Below are positions 12,051-56,655 of a stretch of DNA of 64,000 nucleotides, in pieces. Position numbers and translations under genes: made by a program. The notes under the pieces were generated by a model. That model did no database searches, was not told the DNA's origin, and saw only the letters and a program-made list of their open reading frames with translations. Source of the stretch: Burkholderiales bacterium (GTDB taxonomy: Bacteria > Pseudomonadota > Gammaproteobacteria > Burkholderiales > SG8-39); assembly GCA_036560705.1 (NCBI GenBank), contig DATBQR010000054.1, forward strand, positions 9,711 through 73,710. The letters run 5' to 3'. Position 1 is the first letter of the stretch. Every line of letters starts with the position of its first letter.

Positions 12051-14648
<2,598 letters not shown>

Positions 14649-18802: not shown

Positions 18803-18806
18803 TTTT

Positions 18807-20161: not shown

Positions 20162-20233
20162 GGATATCCTCGCGCAGGCGGTGGAAAATCAATTGCCCAA
20201 GGATACCTCGTCCCGTGCCCTGCGCGAATTCCG

Positions 20234-21399: not shown

Positions 21400-21408
21400 G
21401 TCGCCTCC

Positions 21409-21759
21409 TCAGCGTGTCCTGGCTTTTTTGCGGGTCTTCACCCGCGGCACCTCGCAGACAGGCGCGCACGCCGCGCCGCTGCCGCAGCAGTTGTCGGTGA
21501 GAAAACCGACCAGAGTGTTCATTGCGTCGAAGTCGGCAGAGTAAATGAGAGAAGTCCCCTCCCGGCGGCGGACCACGAGCCCGGCGTGCTTGAGCTGCGA
21601 CAAATGGAATGAAAGCGTCGGGGCCGGGAATTTCATTTCCCTACCGATCCGGCCGGCGGACAAACCCTCAGGGCCGGCCTGAACGAGAAGACGGAAGATC
21701 CCGAGCCTCGATTCCTGGGCCATGACTCCCAGGATGGCCACGGCATGCTTAGATTCCAT
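21409..21759 (-). CDS. arsR: ArsR/SmtB-family metalloregulator
   Basis: Winged HTH (ESRLGIFRLL, PTLSFHLSQLKHAGLV) with a Cys-rich C-terminus (NCCGSGAACAPVC). The start is set at the internal ATG (MESKHAV); the track start at 21795 is the alternative. Confidence 0.8.
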   Translation of the reverse strand: MESKHAVAILGVMAQESRLGIFRLLVQAGPEGLSAGRIGREMKFPAPTLSFHLSQLKHAGLVVRRREGTSLIYSADFDAMNTLVGFLTDNCCGSGAACAPVCEVPRVKTRKKARTR

Positions 21760-21779
21760 ATTTCCAATGTTATGGAAAT
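21760..21779. promoter_or_regulatory. perfect 7-6-7 palindrome ATTTCCA-N6-TGGAAAT, candidate ArsR operator
   Basis: An AT-rich perfect inverted repeat immediately 5' of the preferred arsR ATG, in GC-rich surroundings. ArsR-family repressors autoregulate through such dyads. Confidence 0.35.
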
Positions 21780-21979
21780 AGTCGCCGGCGGTCAATGCCT
21801 ATGGCGGAGCCGGGCTCGTTTCGCGCCTGGGGTAGAGTGGCGGGCCTCTGCGTTCCAAAAAGCGCGATATGGCCCTGCGATTTCTTCTACTTGTGTTGCC
21901 GGGCATCTGCTGCTCGGCGCCCGCCGTTGCCCAGCACCATGCCCCCCCTACGCCGGGAAGAATCACGGCGGCTAAGCCG

Positions 21980-24692: not shown

Positions 24693-25457
24693 ATGAACGC
24701 CCGCAATTTCTTGGTCGCAACCAGCCTCTTAACTGCAACGTTGTCGGTGACCGGAACAGCGGCAGCGGACGAGGCGCAGATTGCCGTCGCGGCCAACTTC
24801 GCCGCGCCGGTGAAGCAGATCGCCGAAAAATTTTTCCAATCGACGGCACACAAAGTGTTGATCAGCATCGGTTCGACGGGGAAGTTCTATTCCCAGATCA
24901 GCAACGGCGCGCCTTTCGACGTGTTTCTGTCGGCAGATGACGAAACACCGCTGCGCATGGAACGGGAAAAGCTCGCGATAACGGGCACCCGATTCACCTA
25001 TGCCATCGGGAAGCTCGTGTTGTGGAGTCCAGCGGCGAACTTCGTGGACGGCAACGGCGACGTCCTTAGAAAAGAACCCTTCAAACGCCTCGCCATCGCC
25101 AACCCGAAGCTCGCCCCTTACGGCGCAGCCGCGCAGCAAACGCTGGAAAAGATGGGCATCTGGTCTGCATTGCAGGGCAAACTGGTCCTTGGCGAGAACA
25201 TCGCCCAGACGCTGCAGTTCGTCGCCAGCAGCAACGCGGAACTGGGCTTCGTCGCCTTCTCCCAGATCCAGGAAGGCGGGAAGACACCCGCCGGATCCCA
25301 CTGGCTGGTGCCCCAGTCGCTCTATGATCCCATCCGCCAGGACGCGGCGCTGCTCGCCCACGGCAACAGCAATCAAGCGGCGCGCCTGTTCCTCGAATTC
25401 CTTCGCAGCCCTCAAGCCCGGGAGATTATCCGCACGTACGGTTACGACTTGCCGTAA
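24693..25457 (+). CDS. modA: molybdate ABC transporter substrate-binding protein
   Basis: 254 aa with a signal peptide and ModA-like sequence ([26 protein letters not shown]). Confidence 0.9.
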
Positions 25458-25467
25458 CCTTCCGGTC

Positions 25468-26148
25468 ATGGTCCTCGGCGCGCATGACGTTGCCGCCATC
25501 TGGTTGACGCTGCGGCTCGCCACGACGGCTACCGCGCTGCTGCTCCTCTTCGGCACGCCGCTGGCGTGGTGGCTGGCGCGAACGCGCTCGTGGTTGAGAG
25601 GCCCCGTCGGCGCTCTCGTGGCGCTCCCCATCGTGCTGCCCCCGACGGTGCTCGGGTTCTATCTTCTCGTAATGCTGGGACCGGCCGGTCCGGTTGGCGC
25701 GACCATGCGGGCGCTCGGGCTTGACCTGCTGCCGTTTACCTTCGCCGGCCTCGTCATCGCCTCGGTGCTTTATTCAATACCGTTCGTCGTGCAGCCTCTG
25801 CAGTCGGCGTTCGAAGCGATCGGCGACCGTCCGATGGAGGCTGCCGCCACGCTGCGCGCTAGCCCCCTGGATCGTTTCTTCACCGTGGTCCTGCCGCTCG
25901 CGCGGCCGGGAATTCTCAGCGCCATCATCCTCGGCTTCGCGCATACCCTGGGCGAGTTCGGCGTCGTCCTGATGATCGGCGGAAACATTCCGGGCCAGAC
26001 AAAGGTCCTCTCGGTCGCACTGTACGATCATGTCGAGGCTCTGGAGTACGCGCCGGCGCACTGGATTGCCGGCGGCATGCTGCTGTTCTCCTTCGCGGTG
26101 CTCCTGCTCGTGTACGGCTGGGGCCGCGGCCCGCGGGTGGAGCTATGA
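25468..26148 (+). CDS. modB: molybdate ABC transporter permease
   Basis: The internal ATG gives a 226-aa permease ([30 protein letters not shown]). Confidence 0.9.
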
Positions 26149-27215
26149 GCGGTTTGCTTGCCCGGCTGAGGTTGCCGCGCAAGGAATTCACGCTCGACGT
26201 GGACCAGCAGATGCCCGGCCAGGGGATTACGGCTCTGTTCGGCGCTTCGGGATCCGGCAAGACAACCCTGCTTCGATGCATTGCGGGCCTCGAACGGGCT
26301 TCGCAAGGCGTCGTTTCGTTCGACGACGAACGCTGGCAGGACGAGTCGGCGCGCATCTTCGTGCCGCCGCACCGGCGTGCCTGTGGCTACGTTTTCCAGG
26401 AGGCGAGCCTCTTTCCGCACCTGTCGGTTCGTCGCAATCTGGAGTACGGAGAGAAGCGCGTACCTGCCGGGCAAAAGCGCCAAGCTTTCGAGCAGACAGT
26501 TGAACTGCTCGGCATTGCGCCACTGCTTGCCCGGCGTACCGAAAACCTGTCTGGCGGTGAGCGGCAACGCGTTGCGATTGCGCGTGCCTTGCTTACCAGT
26601 CCACGTTTGTTGCTGATGGATGAACCGCTGGCGTCCGTCGACGTGAATCGCAAGGGAGAAATCCTGTACTACATCGAACGGCTGCGAGACGAGCTTCGCC
26701 TGCCGATTGTCTACGTAAGCCATGCGATCGACGAAGTCGTGCGCCTCGCGAACAGAGTAATCGTGCTCGCAAACGGTCGCGTAACCGCCGCAGGCTCAGT
26801 GCAGGACACGATCGGACGGGACCACGGCGGCGCCGTGATCGAAGCGACGGTCGCTGCGCAGGACCTGAAAACGGGCCTCGCGCGCCTCTCCTTCACTGGC
26901 GGCGAACTGCTGGTGGCCGATGTGGATAGCCCAGTGGGCAAAACGCTGCGCGTGCGGCTGCGCGCGCGCGACGTGTCGATCGCGCTGGAACAGCCGCGCA
27001 ACGTCAGCGTGCTCAACTGCCTGGCCGGGCGCATCGTCCAGATCAGCGCCGAACCCGGCTCCAGCGTCGACGTGCGCCTGGATGTCTCCGGCACGCCGGT
27101 CATCGCTCGCATCACGCGCCATTCCGCCGAACGGCTCGGTCTTACGGTCGGCAAGGAGGTCTGGGCGATGGTGAAGGCGGTCTCGCTCGACCGCCACAGC
27201 GTCGGCTATGCTTGA
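26145..27215 (+). CDS. modC: molybdate ABC transporter ATP-binding protein with C-terminal TOBE/Mop domain
   Basis: 356 aa with Walker [18 protein letters not shown] and LLMDEP, plus a C-terminal roughly 120-aa TOBE-like domain. The ATGA overlaps modB. Confidence 0.9.
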
Positions 27216-27234
27216 CCAATTCCGAGGAGAAACC

Positions 27235-27522
27235 ATGCCCGCCTACGTGATCGCCGAAGTGAACGTGACCGACCCGCAGCTCTACGACGAATACAAGAAG
27301 CTCGTGCCCGCAACCGTGGAGAAGTACGGCGGCCGCTTCGCGGTGCGCGGCGGCACGGTCGAATCCAAGGAAGGCGGCTGGAAGCCCGCGCGCATGGTGG
27401 TGCTGGAATTCCCCTCGATGGAAAAGGCGCGCGCCTGGTACCACTCGCCCGAATACGCGCCGGTACTCGCCATGCGCCTCAAGGCCGGCAGCGCGAAACT
27501 GATCCTCGTCGAAGGCGCCTAG
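27235..27522 (+). CDS. DUF1330-family protein
   Basis: [22 protein letters not shown] and the following sequence are typical of DUF1330. Start is at the internal ATG behind GAGGAGA. Confidence 0.75.
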
Positions 27523-27608
27523 GCTCTTGTTTTTGCAGGTTTAGCGGCCATCTTCCCGGCAGAGGGAGGGGTCTTTCGCGCGCCCCCTCCTGTATCATCG
27601 CTAAACCC

Positions 27609-28694
<1,086 letters not shown>

Positions 28695-28701
28695 GGCAAA
28701 G

Positions 28702-29532
28702 ATGCGCCGCCCGCTGCTGACGAACGCCGCCCGGCCCGCCACTTTCGAAGTCGAGGCCACCAACGAGCGCGGCGAAATGGTGCCGACCTCGATCGCCGGC
28801 GAGCATCCGCTCACGCTTTACCTCGACAAGCGGGAGCTCGTCACGCTGATGACGCTCGGCCACGCGCCCGAGGCGCTCGCCATCGGCTTCCTGCGCAACC
28901 AGCGCCTCGTCGCCGGGATCGAGGACATCGATGCCGTGCAGGTGGACTGGGAGACGGACTCCGTCGCCGTCACCACCAACAAGAAATCCGATATCGAAAA
29001 AAAGACCGGCAAGAAAACCGTCACCACCGGCTGCGGCCAGGGCACGGTGTACGGCGATCTCATGGAAGAGATCGACAGCGTCAGGCTGCGCGACGACGTG
29101 GCGCTCGAGGACGCGCAGCTTTTCGTGCTGCTGGAGAAGGTGCGCAGGCACGAAACCATCTACAAGCAGGCCGGCGCGGTGCACGGCTGCGCCCTCGCCA
29201 CGCGCGGGGGCGAGATCCTGATGTTCGTCGAGGATGTCGGCCGGCACAACGCGGTGGACGCCATCGCCGGCTTCATGTGGCTGGACGACATCGACGGTTC
29301 CGACAAGGTCTTCTACACCACCGGCAGGCTCACCTCGGAAATGGTGATCAAATGCGCGCAGATGCGCATCCCGTTCCTGGTGTCGCGCTCGGGGCTGACG
29401 AACATGGGGCACCAGATCGCCGGGCGGGTCGGATTGACGATGATCGGGCGTGCCAGCGGCAGGCATTACCTGGCGTTCACCGGCAAGCAGCGGCTGAAGC
29501 TCACGGCGCCGCAACCGACGGCAATTGTCTAG
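28702..29532 (+). CDS. fdhD: formate dehydrogenase accessory sulfurtransferase FdhD
   Basis: FdhD motifs are present (TTGCGQG, GAVHGCALA, DVGRHNAVD). ATG lies behind GAGG. The track TTG at 28684 is the alternative start. Confidence 0.85.
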   Translation: MRRPLLTNAARPATFEVEATNERGEMVPTSIAGEHPLTLYLDKRELVTLMTLGHAPEALAIGFLRNQRLVAGIEDIDAVQVDWETDSVAVTTNKKSDIEKKTGKKTVTTGCGQGTVYGDLMEEIDSVRLRDDVALEDAQLFVLLEKVRRHETIYKQAGAVHGCALATRGGEILMFVEDVGRHNAVDAIAGFMWLDDIDGSDKVFYTTGRLTSEMVIKCAQMRIPFLVSRSGLTNMGHQIAGRVGLTMIGRASGRHYLAFTGKQRLKLTAPQPTAIV

Positions 29533-39544: not shown

Positions 39545-40108
39545 ATGACCGACGTCACGGGAATCGTGCTCGCCGGCGGCCAGGGGCGCCGCATGGGCGG
39601 CGTGGACAAGGGCCTGCAGCTGCTGCACGGCAAGCCGATGGTGGCGCAGGTGCTCGCGCGCCTCGCGCCCCAGGTCTCCGAGATCGTCATCAACGCCAAC
39701 CAGAACCTCGACGTCTACGCCGGCTTCGGCCATCGCGTGGTGCCCGACGCCATCGGCGGCTTCGCCGGCCCGCTCGCCGGGTTGCACGCGGGGCTCGGCG
39801 CAGCGCACCACCCTCTCGTGCTCACGGCGCCCTGCGATTCGCCCTTTCTGCCGCACGATCTTTTCGCCCGCTTGAGAAGCAAGCTCGGCGAGAACGAGCT
39901 GGCGGTGGCGAAAACGGGAGATCAAGCGCATCCGGTTTTTGCCCTCGTCAGGACTTCGGTGAAGAAAAATCTTGAAAACTTCCTGTCCGGCGGCGGCCGG
40001 AAAATCGACGCCTGGTATTCATCGCTCAAGGTCGTCGAAGTGTCGTTCGACGACGAAGCCGACGCCTTCCGCAACATCAACACGCGCGAAGAACTGAAAG
40101 AGGCATGA
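39545..40108 (+). CDS. mobA: molybdenum cofactor guanylyltransferase MobA
   Basis: 187 aa with LAGGQGRRMGGVDKG and the PCDSPF motif. Confidence 0.9.
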   Translation: MTDVTGIVLAGGQGRRMGGVDKGLQLLHGKPMVAQVLARLAPQVSEIVINANQNLDVYAGFGHRVVPDAIGGFAGPLAGLHAGLGAAHHPLVLTAPCDSPFLPHDLFARLRSKLGENELAVAKTGDQAHPVFALVRTSVKKNLENFLSGGGRKIDAWYSSLKVVEVSFDDEADAFRNINTREELKEA

Positions 40109-41367
40109 GCAGCATCGCGCAGGTGGTGAGTTGCCTGGACGGCTACGATCCGGAGGCGCTGCGCGTGGACAAGGCCGGCGAGGCGATCCGCGCCTGCCTG
40201 ACGCCGGTCGCAGAAACCGAAACCGTCCCGCTGCGCGAAGCGCTCGGCCGCGTGCTGGCGCAGGAAATCGTGCCGCAGATCGACGTTCCCGGCCACGACA
40301 ATTCGGCAATGGATGGCTGGGCCGTCAGAAGCAGGGATCTTTCCTTCGAAAAGGAAATTCAACTTCTGGAAATCGGTAAGGCACTTGCCGGTAAGCCCTT
40401 CCACAACCCGGTCGGTGCCGGAGAATGCGTGCGCGTGATGACCGGGGCGGTGATGCCGGACGGCGCGGACACGGTGGTGGTGCAGGAAATCTGCCGCGCC
40501 GAAAACGGCCGCGTCGCGGTGCCGCCCGGCCAGAAGGCGGGCCAGAACGTGCGCGCCGCCGGCGAGGACCTGAAGGCGGGCGTGCCGGTGCTGCACGCCG
40601 GGCAGCCGGTGCGCGCCGCCGAACTCGGCCTGATCGCCTCGCTCGGCATCGGCGAAGTGCGCGTCCGGCGCCGGTTGCGGGTGGCGTTCTTCTCCACCGG
40701 CGACGAACTGACCTCGATCGGCACGCCGCTCAAGGAAGGCCAGGTCTACGATTCCAACCGCTACACCCTGCACGGCATGCTGCGCGGCCTCGGCGTGGAG
40801 ATCATCGACATGGGCGTGGTGCGCGACGATCCCGCCCTGCTGGAAGCCGCCTTCAGGAAGGCGGCTGCCGGCGCCGACGCCATCATCACCACCGGCGGCG
40901 TGTCGGTCGGCGAGGCCGATTTCGTCAAGCAGCTGATGGCGCAGCTGGGCGAGGTGCTGTTCTGGAAAATCGCCATGCGCCCCGGCCGGCCGATGGCCTT
41001 CGGCAAGATAGGCAAGGCATTTCTGTTCGGCCTGCCGGGAAATCCGGTCGCCGTGATGGTGACGTTCCATCAGTTCGTCCGCGATGCCCTGCTTTTCCTC
41101 GGCGGCAGGACGGATTCCTTTGAAATTCCGCTGTTGAAAGCAGTCAGCGAAACCGCCGTCCGGAAAGTCCCCGGCCGCACCGAGTACCAGCGCGGCGTCG
41201 TCTACCGCGACGGCAGCGAGTGGAAAGTGCGCACCACCGGCCAGCAGGGTTCGGGCGTGCTGCGTTCGATGTCGGAGGCGAATTGCTTCATCGTGCTCGA
41301 ACACGAGCGCGGCAAGGTTGCGGCGGGCGAACGGGTGCAGGTCCAGCTGTTTGAGGGCTTACTGTGA
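40105..41367 (+). CDS. moeA: molybdopterin molybdenum/tungsten transferase MoeA (paralogue 2)
   Basis: 420 aa with DNSAMDGWA, GGVSVGEADF and PGNPVA. ATGA overlaps mobA. Confidence 0.9.
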   Translation: MSSIAQVVSCLDGYDPEALRVDKAGEAIRACLTPVAETETVPLREALGRVLAQEIVPQIDVPGHDNSAMDGWAVRSRDLSFEKEIQLLEIGKALAGKPFHNPVGAGECVRVMTGAVMPDGADTVVVQEICRAENGRVAVPPGQKAGQNVRAAGEDLKAGVPVLHAGQPVRAAELGLIASLGIGEVRVRRRLRVAFFSTGDELTSIGTPLKEGQVYDSNRYTLHGMLRGLGVEIIDMGVVRDDPALLEAAFRKAAAGADAIITTGGVSVGEADFVKQLMAQLGEVLFWKIAMRPGRPMAFGKIGKAFLFGLPGNPVAVMVTFHQFVRDALLFLGGRTDSFEIPLLKAVSETAVRKVPGRTEYQRGVVYRDGSEWKVRTTGQQGSGVLRSMSEANCFIVLEHERGKVAAGERVQVQLFEGLL

Positions 41368-46220: not shown

Positions 46221-48710
46221 CTAGACCGAGTCCCTCAGCGTCAGCGCCGGCGAGGCGGACAGCACCTTGTGCGCCGACAGCCACGCGTTCAGCGAGAGCA
46301 GCAGCACGCCCGAAAGCGGCCCCGCGATCCACAACCCCGGGCTGGGCGGCAGGTCGAGCTCGAAGATGCGCCGCGCCAGCAGCTGGCCGATGGCCGCGGC
46401 GCCGGCGGTGGCGAGAACTCCGGCGAGCAGGCCCATGGCGAGGAATTCGACGCGCTGGCTGCCGGTGACCTGGGCGCGCGAGGCGCCGTAGACGCGCATC
46501 ACCGCGGCTTCGCGCCGGCGCTCGTCCTCGGTGGCGACCAGCGCCGAATAGAGCACCAGGAGTCCCGCGCCCAGCGCGAACAGGAAGACCACCTGCACGG
46601 CCGAGATCACCTGGTCGACGATGCCCTGCGCCTGGCGCACCGCCGCGCCGACGTCGACCAGGGTGAGGTTGGGAAAGCGCGCGGTGAGTTCGTTCATCTG
46701 CGCTTCCCTGCCCGGCTCGATGCGAAAAGCCGAGATGTAGCTCGCCGGGAAGCGCCCGATCAGGCTCTCCGGGCCGATGACGAAGAAATTCACCTTCATC
46801 GAATCCCAGCGCAGCTTGCGCAGCGAGCTCACGCGCGCGGTGAAGGATTCGCCGCCGACCGTGAAAGTCAGTTCGTCGCCCAATTTCCAGCCCAGCGTCT
46901 TGGCGATGCCCACCTCCACCGAAAGCTCCTGGGAGCCCGGCGCGAACCAGCGGCCTTCGCTCACGACGTTGTGCGCCGGCGGCCAGATGGCGAACGACAG
47001 GTTGAATTCGCGCTCCACCAGGCGCCGTGCGCGCTCCTCGGTGAAATCGGCCTCCGAGACCTTTTTGCCGTTCACGGCCGTGAGACGGCCGCGCACCATG
47101 GGGTCGAGCTCCGGGACCGGGATGCCGTGGCTGGTGAAAAATGCCTTCACCTCGGCGAGCTGGTCCGGCTGCACGCCGAGCAGGAAGCGGTTGGGCGCAT
47201 CCGGCGGCGAGCTGCGGCGCCAGGCATCCACCAGGTCGTTGCGGGTGAAGGTCAGCAAGAGGACCGCCGTGAGTCCCAGTGCGAGGCTCGCCACCTGCAC
47301 CGCGTTGCCGCGCGCGTGCCGGCGCAGGTTCGCCAGGCCGTAGCGCAGGGAAATGTTCTGTTTGCCGATTTTTCTGGAGAAAAAACTTCCCGACAAAAAG
47401 CGCAAACCCGACCAGGCAATCACCGCGAACAGCGCCACCGCGACGGCGAAACCGCCCACCACGGTGACGCCCATCTGCAGGTCTCCCGCCTGCCAGATGA
47501 GCAAGCCGGAGAGCGCGCCCACGCCCGCCGCATAGACTGCGATGGTGCCGCCCCGGGTCGCCCCCGCCTCGCGGCGGATGACGCGCGCCGCCGGCACGTT
47601 CTTCAGCTGCACCAGCGGCGGCAGCGCGAAGCCGAGCAGCAGCACCAATCCGACCAGGAAGCCCTGCAGCGCGGGCAGCAGCGACGCCGCCGGCAGGTCG
47701 GCACGCAGCAGCCCGTTGAGGATTTCCGCGATGAAGGACTGCGCCACGAAACCGATGGCCGCGCCCGCCGCGCAGGAAAATATCCCCAGCAGGACGAATT
47801 CCAGGCCGAACAGCGCCAGCAGCTTCCCCTGCGTCGCGCCGTAGCAGCGCATCACCGCGCAGCCGTCGAGATGCCGCTCGACGAAGCGGCGCGTGCCGAG
47901 CGCGATGGCGACGCCGGCGAGGATGGCCGCCAGCAGCGCGGTGAGCCCGAGGAAGCGCTGCGCGCGCTCGATGGCGCCGCGCACCTCCGGCCGTCCGCTC
48001 TCCAGATCGTCCACGCGCTGGCCGCGCCCGACCTGCCCTTTCGCCCAGGCCTCGAGCGCGGCGACCGGCTTGCGCGCGCCGGCCGCGTAGAGGTGGTACG
48101 AGACGCGGCTGCCGGTCTGCACCAGCCCGGTCGCGGCCACGTCGGCGACGTTCATGAACAGCCGCGGCGCGATGTTGAAGAAATTGGCGCCGCGCTCCGG
48201 CTCCAGCGTGATGATCGCGGCCACTTTCAGGGTCGCGTTGCCGAGCTTCAGCGTCGAGCCGACCGGCGCGGCGAGCGCGGACACCAGCCGCTCCTCGATC
48301 CACACCGTGCCGCGCGCCGGGCCCGCCTGCGCCGGCGCATCGGGTTCATTCGGCGCCGGCGCGATGCGCAGGCGGCCGCGCAGCGGGTAGTTCCCGGTGA
48401 CCGCCTTGATGCCGGCCAACTGCGAATTTTCCCCCTTGATCGCCATGCTGATGAAGGTGGTCGCCCGCGCGAGCTCGAGGCCGCGGCGGGAAATCTCCTC
48501 CGCGACACCCGCCTGCCAGGGATGGTCCGACACCAGCACCAGGTCCGCTCCCAGCAGCTGGTGCGCGTCCCTCACCAGCGCGCGGCTCACGCGGTCGGCG
48601 AAGAAGCCCACGCTGGTGATGCTGGCGACGGCGACCACCAGCGCCATCGCCAATACGCCCAGTTCCCCGGCCCGCCAGTCCCGCAACAGCATGTTGAGGG
48701 ACTGCTTCAT
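46221..48710 (-). CDS. ybbP: FtsX-family ABC transporter permease (YbbP-type, duplicated)
   Basis: 829-aa ORF with two FtsX-like 4-TM modules, downstream of ybbA. Confidence 0.85.
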   Translation of the reverse strand: MKQSLNMLLRDWRAGELGVLAMALVVAVASITSVGFFADRVSRALVRDAHQLLGADLVLVSDHPWQAGVAEEISRRGLELARATTFISMAIKGENSQLAGIKAVTGNYPLRGRLRIAPAPNEPDAPAQAGPARGTVWIEERLVSALAAPVGSTLKLGNATLKVAAIITLEPERGANFFNIAPRLFMNVADVAATGLVQTGSRVSYHLYAAGARKPVAALEAWAKGQVGRGQRVDDLESGRPEVRGAIERAQRFLGLTALLAAILAGVAIALGTRRFVERHLDGCAVMRCYGATQGKLLALFGLEFVLLGIFSCAAGAAIGFVAQSFIAEILNGLLRADLPAASLLPALQGFLVGLVLLLGFALPPLVQLKNVPAARVIRREAGATRGGTIAVYAAGVGALSGLLIWQAGDLQMGVTVVGGFAVAVALFAVIAWSGLRFLSGSFFSRKIGKQNISLRYGLANLRRHARGNAVQVASLALGLTAVLLLTFTRNDLVDAWRRSSPPDAPNRFLLGVQPDQLAEVKAFFTSHGIPVPELDPMVRGRLTAVNGKKVSEADFTEERARRLVEREFNLSFAIWPPAHNVVSEGRWFAPGSQELSVEVGIAKTLGWKLGDELTFTVGGESFTARVSSLRKLRWDSMKVNFFVIGPESLIGRFPASYISAFRIEPGREAQMNELTARFPNLTLVDVGAAVRQAQGIVDQVISAVQVVFLFALGAGLLVLYSALVATEDERRREAAVMRVYGASRAQVTGSQRVEFLAMGLLAGVLATAGAAAIGQLLARRIFELDLPPSPGLWIAGPLSGVLLLSLNAWLSAHKVLSASPALTLRDSV

Positions 48711-49402
48711 CAGGCGGCGATCCTGCCCGCCACCAGGCGGATCACCCGGCCGCAGCTCTGCGCGAGGTGCTCGTCGTGCGTCACCATCACCAGCGTGGTG
48801 CCGGCCTCGCGGTTGAGCTGGAACAGCAGCGCGATCACCGCCACGCCCGATTCCGCGTCCAGGCTGCCGGTCGGCTCGTCGGCGAACAGGATCTTCGGCC
48901 GCACCGAGAATGCCCGGGCCAGCGCCACGCGCTGCTGTTCGCCCCCGGAAAGATGCTTCGGGTAGTGGCCGAGCCGGTCGGCGAGGCCGACGCGCTGCAG
49001 GACCTCCCGTGCCTTCGCTTCCGCCTGCGGGTCCTTCGCCAGCTCCAGCGGCAGCATCACGTTCTCGAGCGCGGTCAGGGAGGGCAGCAGCTGGAACGAC
49101 TGGAACACGAAGCCGATCGAGCGGCCGCGCAGCTCGGCGCGCGCGTCCTCGTCCAGGCCGAACAGGTCGGCGCCGTCCACCTGGACCGTGCCGGCGCTCG
49201 GCGTATCGAGGCCGGCGAGGATGGCGAGCAGCGTCGATTTGCCGGAGCCCGAGGCGCCGACGATGGCGAGCGCGTCGCCCGCCGTGACGCTCAGGTCGAT
49301 TTCGCGCAGAATGACGAGGTCACTGGAGCCGCTCTTGACCGTCTTGCCGATGCCGCGCGCGCTGAGAATCGTTTTTTTCGGGCTGCTGTCGCTCATCGGC
49401 AT
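48710..49402 (-). CDS. ybbA: ABC transporter ATP-binding protein (YbbA-type)
   Basis: 230 aa with GASGSGKST, LSGGEQQRV and LFADEPTG. It is divergent from tesA, the classical arrangement. Confidence 0.88.
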   Translation of the reverse strand: MPMSDSSPKKTILSARGIGKTVKSGSSDLVILREIDLSVTAGDALAIVGASGSGKSTLLAILAGLDTPSAGTVQVDGADLFGLDEDARAELRGRSIGFVFQSFQLLPSLTALENVMLPLELAKDPQAEAKAREVLQRVGLADRLGHYPKHLSGGEQQRVALARAFSVRPKILFADEPTGSLDAESGVAVIALLFQLNREAGTTLVMVTHDEHLAQSCGRVIRLVAGRIAA

Positions 49403-49979
49403 GGCATCGGCGGCAACCGCCGCTTCCGGAAAAACGCTGCTCGTCTACGGGGACAGCCTGTCGGCGGCTTACGGCATGCCGGAGCGGCGCGGCTGGGTGG
49501 CGCTGCTCGAAGATCGGTTGAAGCGCGAACATCCCGATTATAGCGTCGCCAACGCGAGCATCTCGGGGGAAACCTCGGCGGGCGGCCTGGCGCGCATCGG
49601 CAAGGTCATCGAGCGCCAGAAACCGGCGATCGTCATCCTCGAACTGGGCGCCAACGACGGCCTGCGCGGCCTGCCCGTCGCGGCGATGACGAAAAACCTC
49701 GCCGCCATCATCGAACAGTCACAAAAAGCGGGGGCGAAAGTGCTGCTGGTGGGCATGCGCCTGCCGCCCAACTACGGCGATCCCTATACCCGGGCTTTCG
49801 AGCGCGCCTTCGCCGACCTGGCGAAGAGCCACCACGCCGCGCTGCTGCCGTTCATGATGGAAGGCTTCGCCGACCGGGCCGAGCTGTTCCAGCCCGACCG
49901 GCTCCACCCGACGGAGGCGGCGCAGCCCGCGGTGCTGAAGAACGTCTGGGCAGTACTCGCCCCGCTGCTGAAGAAATAG
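49350..49979 (+). CDS. tesA: SGNH/GDSL arylesterase-thioesterase TesA-type
   Basis: Signal peptide, then the GDSL block (LLVYGDSLSAAYG), GANDGLRG and C-terminal DRLHPT. The start is uncertain; ATG 49350 overlaps the ybbA 5' end by 53 nt. Confidence 0.78.
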   Translation: MPRALRIVFFGLLSLIGMASAATAASGKTLLVYGDSLSAAYGMPERRGWVALLEDRLKREHPDYSVANASISGETSAGGLARIGKVIERQKPAIVILELGANDGLRGLPVAAMTKNLAAIIEQSQKAGAKVLLVGMRLPPNYGDPYTRAFERAFADLAKSHHAALLPFMMEGFADRAELFQPDRLHPTEAAQPAVLKNVWAVLAPLLKK

Positions 49980-49988
49980 CCCTCGAAC

Positions 49989-50252
49989 CTACTTGCAGCG
50001 CAGATTGGCGCCGTCGAAGGTAAACGAACTGCCGCAATCCTGTTCGGAAACCCTGCGGTTCGGGTCCGGCCGCAAGGCGCGGAATTCGGCGTAGTAATCA
50101 TCGACCGTCACCAGCTCCACCGGGTGGGTGCCGTAGTACTGGTCGGCCGTGACGATGTCGTTCGAGTTGTAGCTGAGGGGCCCGCTTGCGCAGGATGCCG
50201 TGCCCGCGGCGAGCAGGATCACGGCGCTGGTTTTCAGGTAGTTCATCGGCAA
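49989..50252 (-). CDS. small putative lipoprotein
   Basis: 87 aa with an N-terminal hydrophobic segment ending in the lipobox-like AAGTASC. No recognisable family. Confidence 0.45.
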   Translation of the reverse strand: MPMNYLKTSAVILLAAGTASCASGPLSYNSNDIVTADQYYGTHPVELVTVDDYYAEFRALRPDPNRRVSEQDCGSSFTFDGANLRCK

Positions 50253-50267
50253 TCTCCCATGTTGCGT

Positions 50268-50789
50268 TCAGGCCCGGCCGGCGGGCTTGCCGCGGCCCAT
50301 GCCGCGCTCGAACCCGCCGTGACGGCCGCCATGCGGTGCGAGCACCACGTCGGCAACCTGCTTCTGCTCGGGGCTCAGCGCGGCGTAGAGCGGCTTCTCG
50401 ACCGCGAGCCGGCCGTTGATGCGCGCGATCGCGGCAGCGTGCATCTGCTGCGCCCGCTCCATGCGCTCGATCGCCGACGGGCGGCGATGCTCGTGCCTGC
50501 CCTGCGCCATCTCCTTGCGCATCTGCATCATCTTCTCGTGCCGCTCGTGCATCTTCTTGTCGCGCTCGGACGCCTCCGCCCGCAACCTGTCGGCGTAGGC
50601 GTTCCACTGCGGCTGCTGCGCGTCGGTGATCTTCAGCGCCGTGCGGATGTAGGCGAGGCGCGCTTCGACCTGGTCGGTGGGCCGGCTGAACGGGCGCGGC
50701 TGGCGCTCGTCATGGCCTTGCGCGACGGCAGAAACGGACGCGGCCGCCAGCGCGGCCGAAAACAGGGTGGCTCCAATCAGGCGGTTCAT
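50268..50789 (-). CDS. periplasmic Spy/CpxP-family (LTxxQ-type) protein
   Basis: The internal ATG behind GGAGGAAG gives signal peptide MNRLIGATLFSAALAAASVSAVAQ. The mature part is helical and His/Arg/Met-rich, with ITDAQQPQW and LSPEQKQ motifs. Confidence 0.65.
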   Translation of the reverse strand: MNRLIGATLFSAALAAASVSAVAQGHDERQPRPFSRPTDQVEARLAYIRTALKITDAQQPQWNAYADRLRAEASERDKKMHERHEKMMQMRKEMAQGRHEHRRPSAIERMERAQQMHAAAIARINGRLAVEKPLYAALSPEQKQVADVVLAPHGGRHGGFERGMGRGKPAGRA

Positions 50790-50892
50790 CACTTCCTCCG
50801 GGTAGCGGGACCTGCCTATCTTTCGCCCTCCGCCGCCGGGACGCAACGCAATATTTGCAACCAATTGCAACAGCCCCCAGGCTGGCCCGGGC

Positions 50893-51942
50893 TCAGGAGA
50901 AGGCCAGCCGCGCCGCCCCCGCACCCAGCCGCCCTATGCGCCGGGCCTGCGCGAACCCGCGCGCGGCAAATTCGGCCAGCACGGCCTGCTCCGCGTCGGG
51001 CGCACAGGCCACCAGCAGCCCGCCGCTGGTCTGCGGATCGGTGACCAGCTTGCGCTGCCATTCCGGCGCCCCGCCGGGCAGCGACACGTCCTTGCCGTAG
51101 CCCTGCCAGTTGCGGTCCGAGGCGCCCGTGGCGACGCCCTGCCTGGCCCACTCCAGGGCCTCGGGAATGACCGGCAGGTCGTCCAGACTGACGCTGGCCG
51201 AGAGCTGCGAGCCCCGGCAGATTTCCAGCAGGTGCCCGGCCAGCCCGAAGCCGGTAACGTCGGTCAGCGCGTGCACGCCGGGCATCTCCGAGAGCGCCAT
51301 CCCCGGCGTGTTGAGCTTGGTGGTGGACTCGATCATCGCCGCGTAGCCCGCGTCCGACAGCTTGCCCTTTTTCAGAGCGGCCGAAAGGATGCCGACGCCG
51401 AGCGGCTTGCCGAGGATGAGGACGTCGCCGGCTTTCGCAGTGGAATTTTTCTTGATTTTGTCGGGATGCACGATGCCGAGCGCGACCAGTCCGTAGATCG
51501 GCTCCAGCACGTCGATCGAGTGGCCGCCGGCGATCGGGATGCCGGCCTCGGCGCACACCGATTCGCCGCCCGCGAGGATTTTCCCGATCACTTGCAGCGG
51601 CAGCTTGTCCAGCGGCATGCCGACCAGCGCCAGCGCGAAGATCGGCCTGGCGCCCATGGCGTAGATGTCGGAGATGGCGTTGGTGGCGGCGATGCGCCCG
51701 AAATCGTACGGATCGTCGACGATGGGCGTGAAGAAATCAGTGGTGGCGACCAGCGCCTGCGTATCGTTCAGCTTGTACACCGCCGCATCGTCGGACGTGT
51801 CGGTGCCGACCAGCAATTCCTTGGGCAGCCCGCGGATCGGCGTCGCGGCGAGCAGCTCGGACAATACCGCAGGCGCGATCTTGCAGCCGCAGCCGCCGCC
51901 GTGGCTGAAGGCGGTGAGGCGGATTTTTTCGGGAGCATTCAT
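50893..51942 (-). CDS. selD: selenide, water dikinase (selenophosphate synthetase); SenC role by context
   Basis: 349 aa. The N-terminal motif SHGGGCGCKI carries Cys rather than Sec at the catalytic position. PurM-like domains are present (DDAAVY, TTDFF, GGHSID). Confidence 0.93.
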   Translation of the reverse strand: MNAPEKIRLTAFSHGGGCGCKIAPAVLSELLAATPIRGLPKELLVGTDTSDDAAVYKLNDTQALVATTDFFTPIVDDPYDFGRIAATNAISDIYAMGARPIFALALVGMPLDKLPLQVIGKILAGGESVCAEAGIPIAGGHSIDVLEPIYGLVALGIVHPDKIKKNSTAKAGDVLILGKPLGVGILSAALKKGKLSDAGYAAMIESTTKLNTPGMALSEMPGVHALTDVTGFGLAGHLLEICRGSQLSASVSLDDLPVIPEALEWARQGVATGASDRNWQGYGKDVSLPGGAPEWQRKLVTDPQTSGGLLVACAPDAEQAVLAEFAARGFAQARRIGRLGAGAARLAFS

Positions 51943-51951
51943 GCGGGCATT

Positions 51952-53019
51952 CTAGTCGAGAGTGCAGGTGCGGAAGCCGCAGAACACGTCGCCGCGGTCC
52001 GGCGTGTAGAAATTGCGGAAAGTCGGCCGCAGCAGGCGCGCCGGGGCCGCGAAACTGCCGCCGCGCAGCACCTTGTGCGTGCCGAACCAGGGTTCCGAAT
52101 ACTCCTGGTACGGATCGCGCACGAAGCCCGGATAGGGATTGAACGTGCTCGCGGTCCATTCCCAGACCTGGCCATGGTCCAGGCGGGAACGGGCGCACTC
52201 CCATTCGGCCTCGGTCGGCAGGCGCCGTTTCGCCCAGGCGCAATAGCCCTGCGCCTCGTTCCAGCTGACGTGGCGCGTCGCCTCGCCCGGAGCAAGCGGC
52301 AGCCAGCGCTCGAAGCGCCGCTGCAGCCAGGCGCCACCCTCTTTTTTCCAGTAGCGCGGCGCCGCGCCGCCGGATTCGACGTAAGCAAGGTATTGCGCGT
52401 TGGTAACCACGGAGCGGGAAATGCGGAACGGCGCGATCTCGATTTCATGCGCCCACTTCTCGTTGTCGAACACGAAACCGCTGTCCGGCCTTGCGCCGAG
52501 AATAAATGTTTGGCCTTCTATTTCCAGATCTCCATCTGAAGAAGCGGAAAGCGAAGAATCCACCCCTTCATAACCCAATGTCTGTCTGGTGTAGTGAAAG
52601 GCCTCGGCATGCATGTCTTCGTGAAAGGTCGCCAGGCGCACGAAATACTGTAGAGCTTCGTTTTCCGGCTCCCGCGCCAGCCGCTCGCGGACCAGTTCCA
52701 GCACTTTTTCGCCATAGGAGCGCGTCGCCTTCAGGCCGGGCAGCGGCAGGTCCCAGCGCGTGTCGTGCGCCACCGCGGAGGAATCGTAGAGCGCATCCGC
52801 CCCCGGCAGGATCGAATCGGCGAGCGAGCCATCGGCGCGCTGGCGCAGGCACCAGCGTTCCTGGAACCAGGCGACGTGGCCGATCTCCCAGAGCGGCGGG
52901 TTGACGATCGCCAGCTTCGGCCCGAGCAGCCGCTCGCCGTCGAGATCCCCGGTGACGTGCATCGCCCGCGCGCGGCTGTCGACGAGATCCCGTTCCAGCG
53001 CGGCGGCGTCGGCTAACAT
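51952..53019 (-). CDS. senA: EgtB-family DinB/FGE-sulfatase protein, SenA (selenoneine synthase)-like by sequence type and context
   Basis: 355 aa. The N-terminal DinB-like region (PPLWEIGHVAWFQERW) and the C-terminal FGE-sulfatase region (WNEAQGYCAWAKRRLPTEAEWE, LRGGSFA) are present. The stop lies 9 nt before the selD start, and the gene is divergent from the SenB-type gene. Confidence 0.7.
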   Translation of the reverse strand: MLADAAALERDLVDSRARAMHVTGDLDGERLLGPKLAIVNPPLWEIGHVAWFQERWCLRQRADGSLADSILPGADALYDSSAVAHDTRWDLPLPGLKATRSYGEKVLELVRERLAREPENEALQYFVRLATFHEDMHAEAFHYTRQTLGYEGVDSSLSASSDGDLEIEGQTFILGARPDSGFVFDNEKWAHEIEIAPFRISRSVVTNAQYLAYVESGGAAPRYWKKEGGAWLQRRFERWLPLAPGEATRHVSWNEAQGYCAWAKRRLPTEAEWECARSRLDHGQVWEWTASTFNPYPGFVRDPYQEYSEPWFGTHKVLRGGSFAAPARLLRPTFRNFYTPDRGDVFCGFRTCTLD

Positions 53020-53036
53020 GCCTGCGAGTCTAGCCC

Positions 53037-54029
53037 ATGGCCCGCATCGCGATCGTCACCCCCGCAGGCGCAGGTTCACGCAATGGCAACCGCCATACCG
53101 CCCAGCGCTGGGCCGGCTTCCTGCGCGCCGCAGGCCACCGCGTGTCGGTCGATACGGAATGGAACGGCAAGCCCTGCGACCTGCTGCTGGCACTGCACGC
53201 GCGCCGCAGCCATCCCTCCGTCCTGAAGTACCGAAAACGATTTCCCGCCGGTCCTCTCGTTGTCGCGCTCACCGGCACCGACCTGTACCGCGACCTGCCC
53301 GCTTCGCGCGAAGCGCAACATTCCCTCCGGCTGGCGGACAGAGTCATCGTCCTGCAGGAAGACGCCCTTCGCTTTTTGAGTCCCGGCATCCGAAAGAAGG
53401 CGCGCGTCGTGTACCAATCCGCCGCGCCGTCCGTGCGCCATGCGCCGCTAACGGGCCGGTTCCGCGTCGCGGTCGTGGGCCATCTGCGAAAGGAAAAGGA
53501 TCCCTTTCGCGCCGCGCTCGCGCTGTCCCATGTGAAGCAGGACGTGGAAGTCGTGCAAATCGGCGACGCGCTTTCCCCGGAAATGAAGACGGAAGCGCTG
53601 AGACTGATGAAACGCGAGCCCCGCTACCACTGGCTGGGGGGCAGGACGCACCGCCAGGCGCTCGGCTGGATCGCACGCAGCCACCTGCTCGTCGTCAGTT
53701 CCGTCATGGAGGGCGGCGCCAACGTCATCAGCGAAGCGGCGCGCATCGGCACGCCGGTGCTGGCGTCGCGCGTATCGGGAAACGTCGGCATGCTGGGCCG
53801 GAACTACCCCGGCTACTTTCCGCTGTTCGACGGCCGCAGACTCGCAAGTCTGATCGAACGCGCGGCTGCCGGTCCGGAGTTCTATCGAAAAATTCGGCGT
53901 GCGATGGCAGCGAGACGGCCGTTGTTTTCGCCGACGGCGGAGAGCCAGGCGCTGCGCAACGCGCTGCGCGGCCCACTCGATGTTGCGGCCCGCAGGACGA
54001 ACAGATCGCCGTTCACTGCCAGCGGATAA
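53037..54029 (+). CDS. senB: selD-associated glycosyltransferase, SenB (selenosugar synthase)-like
   Basis: 330 aa. The N-terminus IAIVTPAGAGSRNGNRHTAQRWAGFL and the C-terminal GT-B-like EGGANVISEA match the family characteristically encoded beside selD and senA. Confidence 0.7.
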   Translation: MARIAIVTPAGAGSRNGNRHTAQRWAGFLRAAGHRVSVDTEWNGKPCDLLLALHARRSHPSVLKYRKRFPAGPLVVALTGTDLYRDLPASREAQHSLRLADRVIVLQEDALRFLSPGIRKKARVVYQSAAPSVRHAPLTGRFRVAVVGHLRKEKDPFRAALALSHVKQDVEVVQIGDALSPEMKTEALRLMKREPRYHWLGGRTHRQALGWIARSHLLVVSSVMEGGANVISEAARIGTPVLASRVSGNVGMLGRNYPGYFPLFDGRRLASLIERAAAGPEFYRKIRRAMAARRPLFSPTAESQALRNALRGPLDVAARRTNRSPFTASG

Positions 54030-54531
54030 GCAGGCCGGCGCTGCCGCCGAGAGACCGTTCGTCTCTCCTGCTGCCAAGCCCGAAACCATAGCTCGGTTCG
54101 ACATACCAGCCGATATTCCTGGCCGGCCAAAACATGAAATCGAGGACGCACTCCGCTCCGAGAGTGGTGCCGCGTTCCTGGCCATCGAGTTTTCGCGTCA
54201 CCTGGGGACCGCAACCGACCATGAGTTCGGCCGATTGAGAGAGCGTGAACGGTTTCTTGAATAGGAAACCGATCTCCGTTTCTCTTCGTCCGGCCGCATT
54301 CAACCGCGTAACGCCGGCTTCGACTTCGAGCCACTCGTCGATCAGCGTCTTCTCGATCGATAGCGCCGCACCGGAACTGGCCGATTTGCTCCTGAGATCC
54401 CGTTCGAACGCCGGCCCCACGGAAATTCGGTAGCCGTCATCATCGGCGGGCCGCGCCTGGCCGATCGCATGGCCGCACGCAAACATCTGCATGCCGGCCG
54501 CCAGCAGGCCGAACCATCTGAGGGTACTCAT
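54013..54531 (-). CDS. hypothetical secreted protein (possible small beta-barrel)
   Basis: 172 aa with a signal peptide (WFGLLAAGMQMFACGHAIGQA). It shows alternating-hydrophobic strands and an aromatic-rich C-terminus (LLIRWQ). No family recognised. Confidence 0.45.
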   Translation of the reverse strand: MSTLRWFGLLAAGMQMFACGHAIGQARPADDDGYRISVGPAFERDLRSKSASSGAALSIEKTLIDEWLEVEAGVTRLNAAGRRETEIGFLFKKPFTLSQSAELMVGCGPQVTRKLDGQERGTTLGAECVLDFMFWPARNIGWYVEPSYGFGLGSRRDERSLGGSAGLLIRWQ

Positions 54532-54581
54532 CGGTCCACAAGCTTATCAAGCTCCTGCCGGCGGCGCGTAGAATCCCGCCC

Positions 54582-55640
54582 ATGAAACCGGTACCGCGCC
54601 TCAGCCTGCCAGCCGAAGGCGCGACCTTCGCGGGATTCGAAACCATCATCGACACGCGCTCGCCCGCCGAGTTCGCCGAAGACCACGTCCCGGGCGCGGT
54701 GTCCTGCCCCGTTCTCGACAACGAGGAGCGCGCGCGCGTCGGCACGATCTACAAGCAGGTCTCGCCCTTCGAGGCGAAGAAGCTCGGCGCGGCGCTGGTG
54801 GCGAAGAACATTGCTTTTCATATTGAAAAAATCTTTATGGAAAAACCGAGGGCCTGGAAACCCCTCGTCTATTGCTGGCGCGGCGGCAAGCGCTCGGGCG
54901 CCATGGCGCACGTGCTGCGCGAGATCGGCTGGGAAGCGAGGACGCTCGAAGGCGGCTACAAAGCGTACCGGCACTACGTCGTCGATTCGCTCGCCGCGCT
55001 GCCGGCAAAACTGACCTTCAGGGTGATCCACGGCGTCACCGGCAGCGGCAAGAGCCGCCTGCTGCGGGCGCTGCACGCGGCGGGCGCGCAGGTGCTGGAC
55101 CTCGAGGATCTCGCCGCGCACCGCGGCTCGGTGCTCGGCACCCTGCCCGGCCGGCCGCAGCCGTCGCAAAAGATGCTCGAAAGCCTGCTCCTGCAGAAAA
55201 TTCTTTCCTTCGACATCGGAAAAGAAATTTATGTGGAAGGCGAATCAAAAAAAATCGGCCAGCTGCAGGTCCCCGATGCGCTGATCGCGCGCATGCGCGC
55301 GAGCGAGTGCGTGCTGCTGGAGACCGGCATCGAGACGCGCGTCGCGCTGCTGCTGGACGAATACCGCCATTTCTTCACCGATCCGGCCGCGCTCGGCGCG
55401 CAGCTGGATTGCCTCGTCAGCATGCACGGCCGCGAGAAAATCAGCGAATGGAAGGCGCTCGCCGCCGCCGGCGAATGGCCGGCGCTGGTGGCGCGGTTGC
55501 TGGAAGACCACTACGACGCGGCCTACCGGCGCTCCGCGGCGCATAATTTTCCGCGCCTCGACGCGGCGAAGATCCTGCACCTCGATTCAGCAAATAATGC
55601 GGCCTTCGCGCAGCTCGCCGGGCAGCTAGCCGGAGCCTGA
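54582..55640 (+). CDS. selU: tRNA 2-selenouridine synthase (SelU/MnmH)
   Basis: 352 aa with a rhodanese domain carrying the catalytic CWRGGKRS and a P-loop GVTGSGKS. Confidence 0.9.
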   Translation: MKPVPRLSLPAEGATFAGFETIIDTRSPAEFAEDHVPGAVSCPVLDNEERARVGTIYKQVSPFEAKKLGAALVAKNIAFHIEKIFMEKPRAWKPLVYCWRGGKRSGAMAHVLREIGWEARTLEGGYKAYRHYVVDSLAALPAKLTFRVIHGVTGSGKSRLLRALHAAGAQVLDLEDLAAHRGSVLGTLPGRPQPSQKMLESLLLQKILSFDIGKEIYVEGESKKIGQLQVPDALIARMRASECVLLETGIETRVALLLDEYRHFFTDPAALGAQLDCLVSMHGREKISEWKALAAAGEWPALVARLLEDHYDAAYRRSAAHNFPRLDAAKILHLDSANNAAFAQLAGQLAGA

Positions 55641-55652
55641 AGCGCCATGCTG

Positions 55653-55683
55653 CCGTCGTCCCCGCGCAGGCGGGGACCATTTA
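55653..55683 (+). repeat. REP-like hairpin repeat (copy 1)
   Basis: CGTCGTCCCCGCGCAGGCGGGGACCATTT contains an 8-bp stem with a 4-nt loop (GTCCCCGC-GCAG-GCGGGGAC). It lies between the convergent selU and DUF1801 genes, so it could also act as a bidirectional terminator. Confidence 0.5.
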
Positions 55684-56091
55684 GGACTTCGTTTTCTTCG
55701 AAGCTTTCGACTTGTTGAGGTCGATCGCCTGGCGAATGAGCGCCTTGAAGGCGGTCGCGTCGACGTCCTCTGCCTCGCGGATGTCGATCGCGCGGCGCAC
55801 GTTGCCTTCGAGACTCGAATTGAAGAGACGGCCCGGATCCTTCAGCGACGCGCCCTTGGCGAAGGTGAGCTTCACCTTGTCCTTGTAGGACTCGCCGGTG
55901 CAAATGATGCCGTCGTGCGACCAGACGGGCGTGCCCATCCACTTCCACTCCTCGACGACCTCCGGGTCCGCTTCCTTGATGAGCTTGCGCATCCTGCCAA
56001 GCGTTTTCCCGCGCCAGTCCCCGAGTTCGGCGATTCTTTTCGAGATCAGCTCCGCTGCTGCCTGGCCCTGGCTCACGCCTGGCTTTTTCAT
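55681..56091 (-). CDS. DUF1801 (YdhG-like) domain protein
   Basis: The internal ATG gives 136 aa (EWKWMGTPVWSHDGIICTGESYKDKVKLTFAKGASL), typical of DUF1801. Confidence 0.72.
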   Translation of the reverse strand: MKKPGVSQGQAAAELISKRIAELGDWRGKTLGRMRKLIKEADPEVVEEWKWMGTPVWSHDGIICTGESYKDKVKLTFAKGASLKDPGRLFNSSLEGNVRRAIDIREAEDVDATAFKALIRQAIDLNKSKASKKTKS

Positions 56092-56113
56092 GCTCTCATC
56101 CCGGAAGCGAACG

Positions 56114-56356
56114 TTACTTGATGTCCTCGAGCTTGACGCCGCGACCCGCGCGGAAGCTCGCGCGAGCCTGCTCCACGCGTTGTATGAATCGTGGGTCGTT
56201 CTCGAGCCGGTAGTCGAACCAGTCGTCCTCCGACTTGAATCCGATAAGCACGCCGGCCGGTTTGCCATGGCGCGTGATGACCACATCCTGGGTCTCCGCT
56301 TCCCGGAGAAAGCGGGACAAGTCGTCCTTGACCTCGGAAAGGGGCACTGTCTTCAC
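56114..56356 (-). CDS. Phd/YefM-family type II antitoxin
   Basis: KTVPLSEVKDDLSRFLREAETQDVVITRHGKPAGVLIG is a canonical Phd/YefM N-domain. The preferred GTG start at 56356 forms a GTGA overlap with the toxin stop. The track ATG at 56383 would overlap the toxin by 31 nt. Confidence 0.8.
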   Translation of the reverse strand: MKTVPLSEVKDDLSRFLREAETQDVVITRHGKPAGVLIGFKSEDDWFDYRLENDPRFIQRVEQARASFRAGRGVKLEDIK

Positions 56357-56655
56357 TTTGGATTTCCGTACCGCGTCAGCCATGACCCAGCCTCCGGTTT
56401 AGGCACGATCGCCAATACCTCGACGAGCGAACCCGAGACATCGTAGAACACACGAACCTCTTCAACCCGGAGCCTGTACTGCGGTCGCGCCATGCCGCGC
56501 AAACGCTTGATTCGGCTACGGCTCGTCCCGGTTGGTTCGTGCCTCAAATGAGTTTCGAGGGCTGCCTTTACCGCCGTCCGTTCGCCGGCCTTCAATCTTC
56601 GCAGGTCTTCGACGGCCTCGGGAGCCAGAAGTATCTCGAACCGCATTCTGGCCAT
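56353..56655 (-). CDS. RelE/ParE-family type II toxin
   Basis: 100 aa. The motif pattern YRLRVEEVRVFYDVSGSLVEVLAIVPK is typical of the RelE/ParE fold. Confidence 0.78.
   Translation of the reverse strand: MARMRFEILLAPEAVEDLRRLKAGERTAVKAALETHLRHEPTGTSRSRIKRLRGMARPQYRLRVEEVRVFYDVSGSLVEVLAIVPKPEAGSWLTRYGNPK

Follow-up and report, generated by a model that had tools for sequence, protein, structure and literature searches.

The stretch of DNA analyzed here (the window) comprises 64,000 nucleotides of contig DATBQR010000054.1 from an uncultured, soil-type member of the Burkholderiales. Its positions 50893..55640 appear to carry a canonical senABC selenoneine cluster beside a tRNA selenouridine synthase gene, an interpretation of the sequence to which we assign a probability of about 0.86. 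The senABC pathway was described in Variovorax paradoxus DSM 30034 by Kayrouz, Huang, Hauser & Seyedsayamdost in 2022 (10.1101/2022.04.13.486033), and structures of V. paradoxus SenA (8K5I and 8RYZ) and SenB (8JJQ, 8FBX, and 8RZ3) followed in 2023-24. In the window, selD (equivalent to senC; 50893..51942, minus strand, 349 amino acids [aa]) encodes a selenide, water dikinase of the Cys type and starts 9 nt beyond the stop codon of senA on the same strand. The senA gene (51952..53019, minus strand, 355 aa) encodes a protein with DinB_2 and FGE-sulfatase domains, assigned as a short form of selenoneine synthase. A spacer of 17 bp (53020..53036) separates its start codon from that of the divergent senB (53037..54029, plus strand, 330 aa), whose predicted product is a selenosugar synthase, a GT-B Se-glycosyltransferase. 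All three sen genes lie inside 3.2 kb, and the end of senB is followed after 552 bp by selU/mnmH (54582..55640, plus strand, 352 aa), the gene for tRNA 2-selenouridine(34) synthase. Between these two lies orf172 (54013..54531, minus strand, 172 aa), a conserved hypothetical gene whose product has a signal-peptide-like N terminus. An earlier reading of the letters alone (the sequence-only reading) had placed the other four open reading frames (ORFs) correctly, with the right strands and with spacings of 9 nt and 17 bp, and the peptide motifs that it quoted for SelD, SenB, and SelU were all located in the translations.

The sequence-only reading had proposed a comparison of SenA and SenB profiles with those for EgtB and OvoA, and the result of this comparison, run with NCBIfam hidden Markov models (HMMs), favored its assignments. 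The 355-aa protein scored 454 bits against the SenA equivalog NF041186 (cutoff 420), and it failed both the EgtB model (230 bits; cutoff 360) and the OvoA N-terminal model (70 bits; cutoff 400); the neighboring glycosyltransferase passed the SenB model. The best solved relative of the 355-aa protein was V. paradoxus SenA (8RYZ/8K5I, 283 bits). Published functional residues of SenA (PMC11237966) and SenB (PMC10891094) were mapped through alignments to the V. paradoxus structures. The SenA iron triad (H71/H167/H171 in V. paradoxus) is kept as H48/H133/H137, the catalytic Tyr (Y363) as Y304, the hercynine-binding Asn (N395) as N336, and the selenosugar-binding residues (N63/E68/R120) as N40/E45/R88. 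The position of the thiol-binding Arg of EgtB (R87 in M. thermoresistibile EgtB) is occupied by the SenA-specific His85, and the YY insertion is not present. A composite motif, xNEH--HRHxHYYN(F/Y)(F/Y)R, separates SenA among the NHISS subfamilies (PMC11030361). The window protein reads NEH--HRHMHYYNFYR, equal to the published SenA motif and different from those of OvsA, EgtB-I, and EgtB-II, with residues N40, E45, and H48; H85 and R88; H133, M136, and H137; and Y304, Y307, N336, F337, Y338, and R350. A sulfur-specific EgtB or OvoA identity was rejected on the basis of the HMM cutoffs, His85, and the composite motif; an OvsA identity was rejected by the motif (HYYNFYR vs. HYMQAYR in OvsA) and the HMM cutoffs. 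An exact-sequence match in GenBank (HEY8068389.1) is named "selenoneine synthase SenA."

The glycosyltransferase scored 399.4 bits against the SenB model TIGR04348 (cutoff 300), with the next-best family at 94.6 bits (cutoff 400), and 214 bits against the V. paradoxus SenB structures 8JJQ/8FBX. The catalytic Lys (Lys158 in V. paradoxus) is kept as K154, the sugar triad (N20/T23/E231) as N18/T21/E225, and the selenophosphate pocket (H58/R61/T83/T85/R155) as H54/R57/T79/T81/R151; these residues are invariant or nearly so among 66 relatives. The ribose-binding Glu E233 is likewise kept, as are D82 and Q127, and the motifs IAIVTPA and GSRNGNR occupy residues 4-10 and 13-19, respectively. Four residues differ from V. 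paradoxus SenB (R22H, V157E, T214A, and H235N). All four are the majority state among the 66 relatives, inside and outside the close clade, leaving V. paradoxus as the outlier, so the "divergent" SenB of the sequence-only reading was rejected; by residue statistics, the protein is typical. The EGGAHV sugar-donor motif, for example, reads EGGANV (225-230) in the window, and Asn is found in 63/66 relatives, including all 14 clade members, so that the literal EGGAHV is confined to V. paradoxus and close relatives. GenBank again holds an exact-sequence match (HEY8068390.1, "selenoneine biosynthesis selenosugar synthase SenB"), and the senB-senA pairing was found again in most of 80 related loci. 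Collectively, the equivalog HMMs, the active-site residues, and the composite motif support the selenoneine-type interpretation of SenA, SenB, and selD that had been proposed from the letters alone.

The remaining two enzymes were assigned in the same way. SelD scored 527.6 bits against NF002098 (cutoff 299), 432.5 bits against TIGR00476, and 330 bits against Escherichia coli SelD (3u0o); its SHGGGCGCKI motif occupies residues 13-22, and the GCGCK loop is aligned with that of the E. coli enzyme (Cys18/Cys20/Lys21). SelU scored 492 bits against NF008752 (cutoff 266) and 361 bits against TIGR03167; CWRGGKRS spans residues 98-105, with the rhodanese Cys in CWRGG (98-102), and a Walker A GSGKS lies at 154-158. 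Exact-sequence matches in GenBank are named "selenide, water dikinase SelD" (HEY8068388.1) and "tRNA 2-selenouridine(34) synthase MnmH" (HEY8068392.1). From the V. paradoxus pathway, which has been reconstituted, we infer by homology that SelD (SenC) would convert selenide and ATP to selenophosphate. SenB would then transfer a UDP-sugar (probably UDP-GlcNAc) onto selenophosphate and hydrolyze the Se-P bond by means of Lys154, yielding a 1-seleno-sugar. SenA, using nonheme iron and O2, would join this selenosugar to C2 of hercynine, and elimination of the sugar from the resulting selenoxide would give selenoneine. SelU/MnmH would draw on the same selenophosphate pool for the conversion of tRNA 2-thiouridine to 2-selenouridine. 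It is plausible that a single SelD feeds both selenoneine and tRNA selenouridine.

The window also encodes a sulfur paralogue of SenA. The ORF at 14750..16030 (plus strand), 36 kb from the sen block and unlinked to it, scored 586 bits against the EgtB model TIGR03440 (cutoff 360) and 375 bits against the SenA model, below its cutoff of 420. This reciprocal HMM result, together with 29% identity between the two proteins, bears out the earlier description of the ORF as an EgtB and a longer paralogue of the 355-aa protein. It contains the type II elements SPVKWHLAH, NSYYN, HHEQQH, and YRNFF (SHH, YY insertion, HQH, and YNFF, respectively), and its neighbors are clpB, crcB, moaE, moaD, and moeA. 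Since hercynine is the only known cosubstrate of type II EgtB, the presence of this gene implies that the organism makes hercynine, and EgtD encoded outside the window would supply it to SenA as well. Most of the likely window genes, including every ORF of EgtD, SelA, or SelB size, were scanned with Pfam or NCBIfam. No SelA, SelB, or other further selenium protein was found among the scanned genes, no tRNA was detected in the window by ARAGORN, and Rfam gave no match at gathering thresholds. In-frame TGA read-through was scanned for as well, and the six matches were all antisense shadow frames or gene junctions; at one, an LTXXQ gene ends at its stop codon and a separate lipoprotein ORF comes next in frame. 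The earlier statement that the window lacks selA, selB, and any in-frame TGA or selenocysteine insertion sequence candidate thus stands for the window; selenocysteine may still be used elsewhere in the genome.

The wider distribution of the block was assessed in 80 loci from a scan of GTDB representative genomes, against which the window proteins were searched by tblastn, and in a neighbor-joining tree of SenA homologues rooted on the EgtB of the window. The SenA motif is present in all 80 loci; two or three of them vary slightly, at two positions. The window SenA belongs to a contiguous clade that comprises 21 loci of uncultured Betaproteobacteria/Burkholderiales and has short SenA proteins (~340-375 aa). 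All 13 specified motif positions, the hercynine-binding Y/N/F trio among them, are intact in the window protein and do not vary within the clade. In this clade, selU lies beside senAB in 16/16 informative loci and selD is present in 16/18; for selU, the remaining five loci offer too little sequence or break off on the side in question. Two layouts occur, selU-…-senB<>senA-selD, as in the window, and senB<>senA-selU<>selD. The 59 loci outside the clade mostly encode a long SenA (~420-440 aa), many with full 10-kb flanks, and here selU is found in 0/59 and a close selD in just 1/59. This scarcity of selD agrees with the discovery paper, in which 827 of 2,353 senB genes have senA and selD within 5 kb (10.1101/2022.04.13.486033). 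The gene order of the window block was also found on three metagenome contigs of the Joint Genome Institute (JGI). Two further observations concern selD in this set. Among the loci outside the clade (L022-L071), the majority of senB<>senA pairs that encode a long SenA have no selD within 10 kb, so that the "three-gene" sen cluster is often a two-gene pair with selD elsewhere. In locus L008 (12537..13563), the selD match is broken into two neighboring pieces that lie in different frames, owing to a frameshift (pseudogene) or to an error in long-read assembly.

Several observations weigh against the senABC assignment or against its extension to a shared SelD. In a comparison that included loci L025, L030, and L035, the short SenA was found to lack, after VE·GG (G218 in the window), a segment of ~20 aa that reads "Y·R·ELWSEAGW·W…" and is retained in EgtB, in long SenA, and in the crystallized V. 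paradoxus SenA; a literature search found no characterized or assayed enzyme of the short form. An AlphaFold2 model of the window SenA, built from a 12-sequence alignment of near-identical homologues, gave a mean predicted local distance difference test score of 52.6 and a predicted template modeling score of 0.44, too poor to judge the fold. The margin of SenA above the NF041186 cutoff is just 34 bits. No egtD (PF10017) was found in the 64-kb window by Pfam or NCBIfam, with 30 further likely genes included in the search. Finally, only one selD lies in the 64 kb seen, and a second may lie elsewhere in the genome.

The missing segment, the want of a characterized short form, the narrow HMM margin, and the absence of egtD from the window would fit a cluster that is present but makes no selenoneine, either because the short SenA is inactive or uses another acceptor or donor or because hercynine is unavailable, so that the pathway stops at the selenosugar or leads to a different selenometabolite. 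We consider this outcome decidedly unlikely. The deletion is clade-specific relative to all characterized homologues, but neither it nor a second missing segment (~40 aa upstream of VWEWT, likewise absent from V. paradoxus SenA) touches a motif residue; the short form also lacks the ~23-aa N-terminal extension of V. paradoxus SenA. The intact motif includes the Y/N/F trio that sets SenA apart from the histidine-using OvsA, and the EgtB of the window needs hercynine too. SenA homologues number in the thousands, the closest being 84% identical and 355 aa long, and the short form itself has hundreds of homologues at 68-84% identity; this abundance and conservation argue for purifying selection. 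The location of selU in a transcription unit of its own, with a convergent gene between it and senB, would be compatible with a selD that serves one branch only, be it selU or the senA-selD operon, while another selD in the genome covers the remaining selenium uses. Such a division is unlikely: selenophosphate is diffusible, so any SelD would feed every consumer in the cell, and the clade has a single selD beside selU and senAB in two layouts, for which one SelD per genome is the simplest explanation.

Two further alternatives were considered refuted. If the 355-aa protein were an ordinary EgtB/OvoA sulfoxide synthase and the glycosyltransferase an unrelated cell-envelope enzyme, adjacency to selD would be coincidental. 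Pfam shows only generic domains in the two proteins (DinB_2, FGE-sulfatase, and Glycos_transf_1), and JGI labels relatives as "hercynylcysteine S-oxide synthase" or as "iron(II)-dependent oxidoreductase"; both points would favor such a reading. However, the EgtB and OvoA cutoffs were failed by wide margins where those for SenA and SenB were passed, His85 replaces the thiol-binding Arg, and the senB-senA pairing recurs in most loci. The block might also be an ovoselenol (ovs) cluster, with OvsA acting on C5 of histidine as its NHISS enzyme. OvsA structures were the second-best solved group for the 355-aa protein (228 bits), and ovs clusters carry senB and selD homologues (PMC11030361). The OvsA positions M/Q/A nevertheless read Y307, N336, and F337 in the window, the hercynine-binding SenA state, and no OvsM-type methyltransferase was seen among the neighboring genes.

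The senABC block was also compared with related systems. It shares with V. paradoxus senABC the three enzyme families, the catalytic and substrate-binding residues, the linkage of senA, senB, and selD, and an EgtB in the genome, and differs in sequence (~50% identity for SenA and ~45% for SenB), in the shorter SenA, and in that neither egtD nor a selenate transporter was seen in the window. EgtB of type II (Chloracidobacterium thermophilum 6O6L and the ORF at 14750) belongs to the same DinB_2 plus FGE-like fold family, and like SenA it binds hercynine and has a catalytic Tyr and an iron site of three His; it has a thiol-binding Arg pair and the YY insertion, whereas SenA has His85 and N40/E45/R88 and lacks the insertion, and it makes a C-S bond from cysteine where SenA makes a C-Se bond from a selenosugar. 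In the ovs cluster, too, a SenA-like NHISS enzyme works with SelD and a selenosugar synthase of the SenB type (PMC11030361), but OvsA, with M/Q/A in place of Y/N/F, acts on histidine C5, and N-methylation by OvsM follows. With the proteobacterial selD-selU (ybbB/mnmH) pair, the window shares selD and selU within 3 kb and a SelU with rhodanese Cys and P-loop; it differs in that senA and senB, in the window as throughout the short-SenA clade, are interposed or adjoined, which places one selD beside two different selenophosphate consumers. The cluster itself is already known, because the pathway was published in 2022 and the exact proteins are already named in GenBank (HEY8068388-392). NCBI equivalog models exist for both SenA and SenB, and the value of the window locus is confirmatory. 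The novel part is limited to the short form of SenA and the restriction of the selU linkage to one clade, which are minor comparative observations; a literature search found no prior description of either.

With only 9 nt between them, senA and selD are probably cotranscribed as one operon. selU is a separate transcription unit, because orf172 lies on the opposite strand between it and senB. The spacing between the senA and senB start codons is comparably tight in relatives (e.g., 16 bp in locus L001). Two conventional promoters and their leaders would not fit into 17 bp, so the mRNAs would be leaderless or initiated within the opposite gene. No sigma-70-like site was detected by a promoter scan over 50000..56500, and terminator-like sites in the same interval did not exceed the expectation from shuffled sequence; these outcomes are uninformative about the transcription units. 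A hexamer read by eye on the minus strand, TAGACT, lies 7 nt ahead of the senA ATG and is a possible -10 element; the consensus scan did not match it.

The gene orf172, unmentioned in the sequence-only reading, is convergent with senB, whose 3' end it overlaps by 17 bp, and is separated from the divergent selU by a gap of 50 bp. It is a real gene, since it was called in independent assemblies and has 357 homologues; the protein has no Pfam or NCBIfam match, and all of the homologues are named hypothetical. Other clade members lack the gene between senB and selU, where a CDF-like membrane protein is encoded instead in locus L001 and transglutaminase-like and TlpA-like proteins in L017. A relative with 80% identity also adjoins selU (L085), and more distant members of the family were found after TonB-ExbB-ExbD and a TonB-dependent receptor (L086) and among unknown genes (L087). 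A role for orf172 as a new component of the selenium pathway was rejected because of its absence from the corresponding gaps and the unrelated contexts of its distant kin. It is probably a passenger gene outside the pathway and probably encodes a cell-envelope protein.

Several other features of the window were recorded. A row of arsenic-related genes on the minus strand (18807..21795) comprises an ArsR-family regulator (21409..21795), an ArsC-like low-molecular-weight phosphatase (20899..21399; below cutoff), an MIP/aquaporin-like channel (20234..20902), an arsenosugar biosynthesis-associated peroxidase-like protein (19826..20161; TIGR04169, 168 bits, cutoff 120), and the radical S-adenosylmethionine protein ArsS (true gene ~18807..19740; TIGR04167, 397 bits, cutoff 300). 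The C terminus of ArsS, CTAGAGSSCGG, is of the Cys and not of the selenocysteine form, and no ArsM was seen. With this row, a second metalloid-sugar pathway is encoded in the window. Molybdenum-cofactor genes are dense at 16430..18841, 25000..29532, and 40105..41367 (moaE, moaD, two copies of moeA, mobB, moaA, a modB/modC-like transporter, and fdhD), and no gene for a molybdoenzyme or formate dehydrogenase was found in the window. Formate dehydrogenase is often a selenoprotein, and one could be encoded as such elsewhere in the genome. The flank on the selD side holds genes for a tesA-like GDSL esterase (49188..49979, plus strand), a ybbA-like ABC ATPase (48710..49402, minus strand), and a ybbP-like FtsX permease (46221..48710, minus strand). 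The tesA-ybbA-ybbP group is also near ybbB (selU) in E. coli, and the arrangement may reflect an old synteny. Directly after selU, on the minus strand (55681..56655), come a gene for a DUF1801 protein and a probable type II toxin-antitoxin pair, in which the gene for a Phd/YefM-family antitoxin (56114..56383) overlaps that for a 100-aa partner (56353..56655) without a family match. Two slightly overlapping AlgH-like (DUF179) ORFs lie on the plus strand at 10784..11374 and 11320..12105, the second with a signal-peptide-like extension.

The clade-restricted linkage allows a broader proposal, which we hold tentatively and at a little under even odds. In the short-SenA clade, the housekeeping selD-selU pair and senAB may have been fused into one conserved selenium locus, in which a single SelD hub would split selenophosphate between tRNA wobble modification and selenoneine, perhaps in the absence of selenoproteins and with a truncated SenA that is still active. 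The linkage and the short SenA together mark genomes in which one SelD probably serves both the tRNA and the small-molecule pathways, which may be useful for the mapping of selenium-utilization traits. If the proposal is true, the locus would offer a compact natural system for the study of how selenium flux is partitioned.

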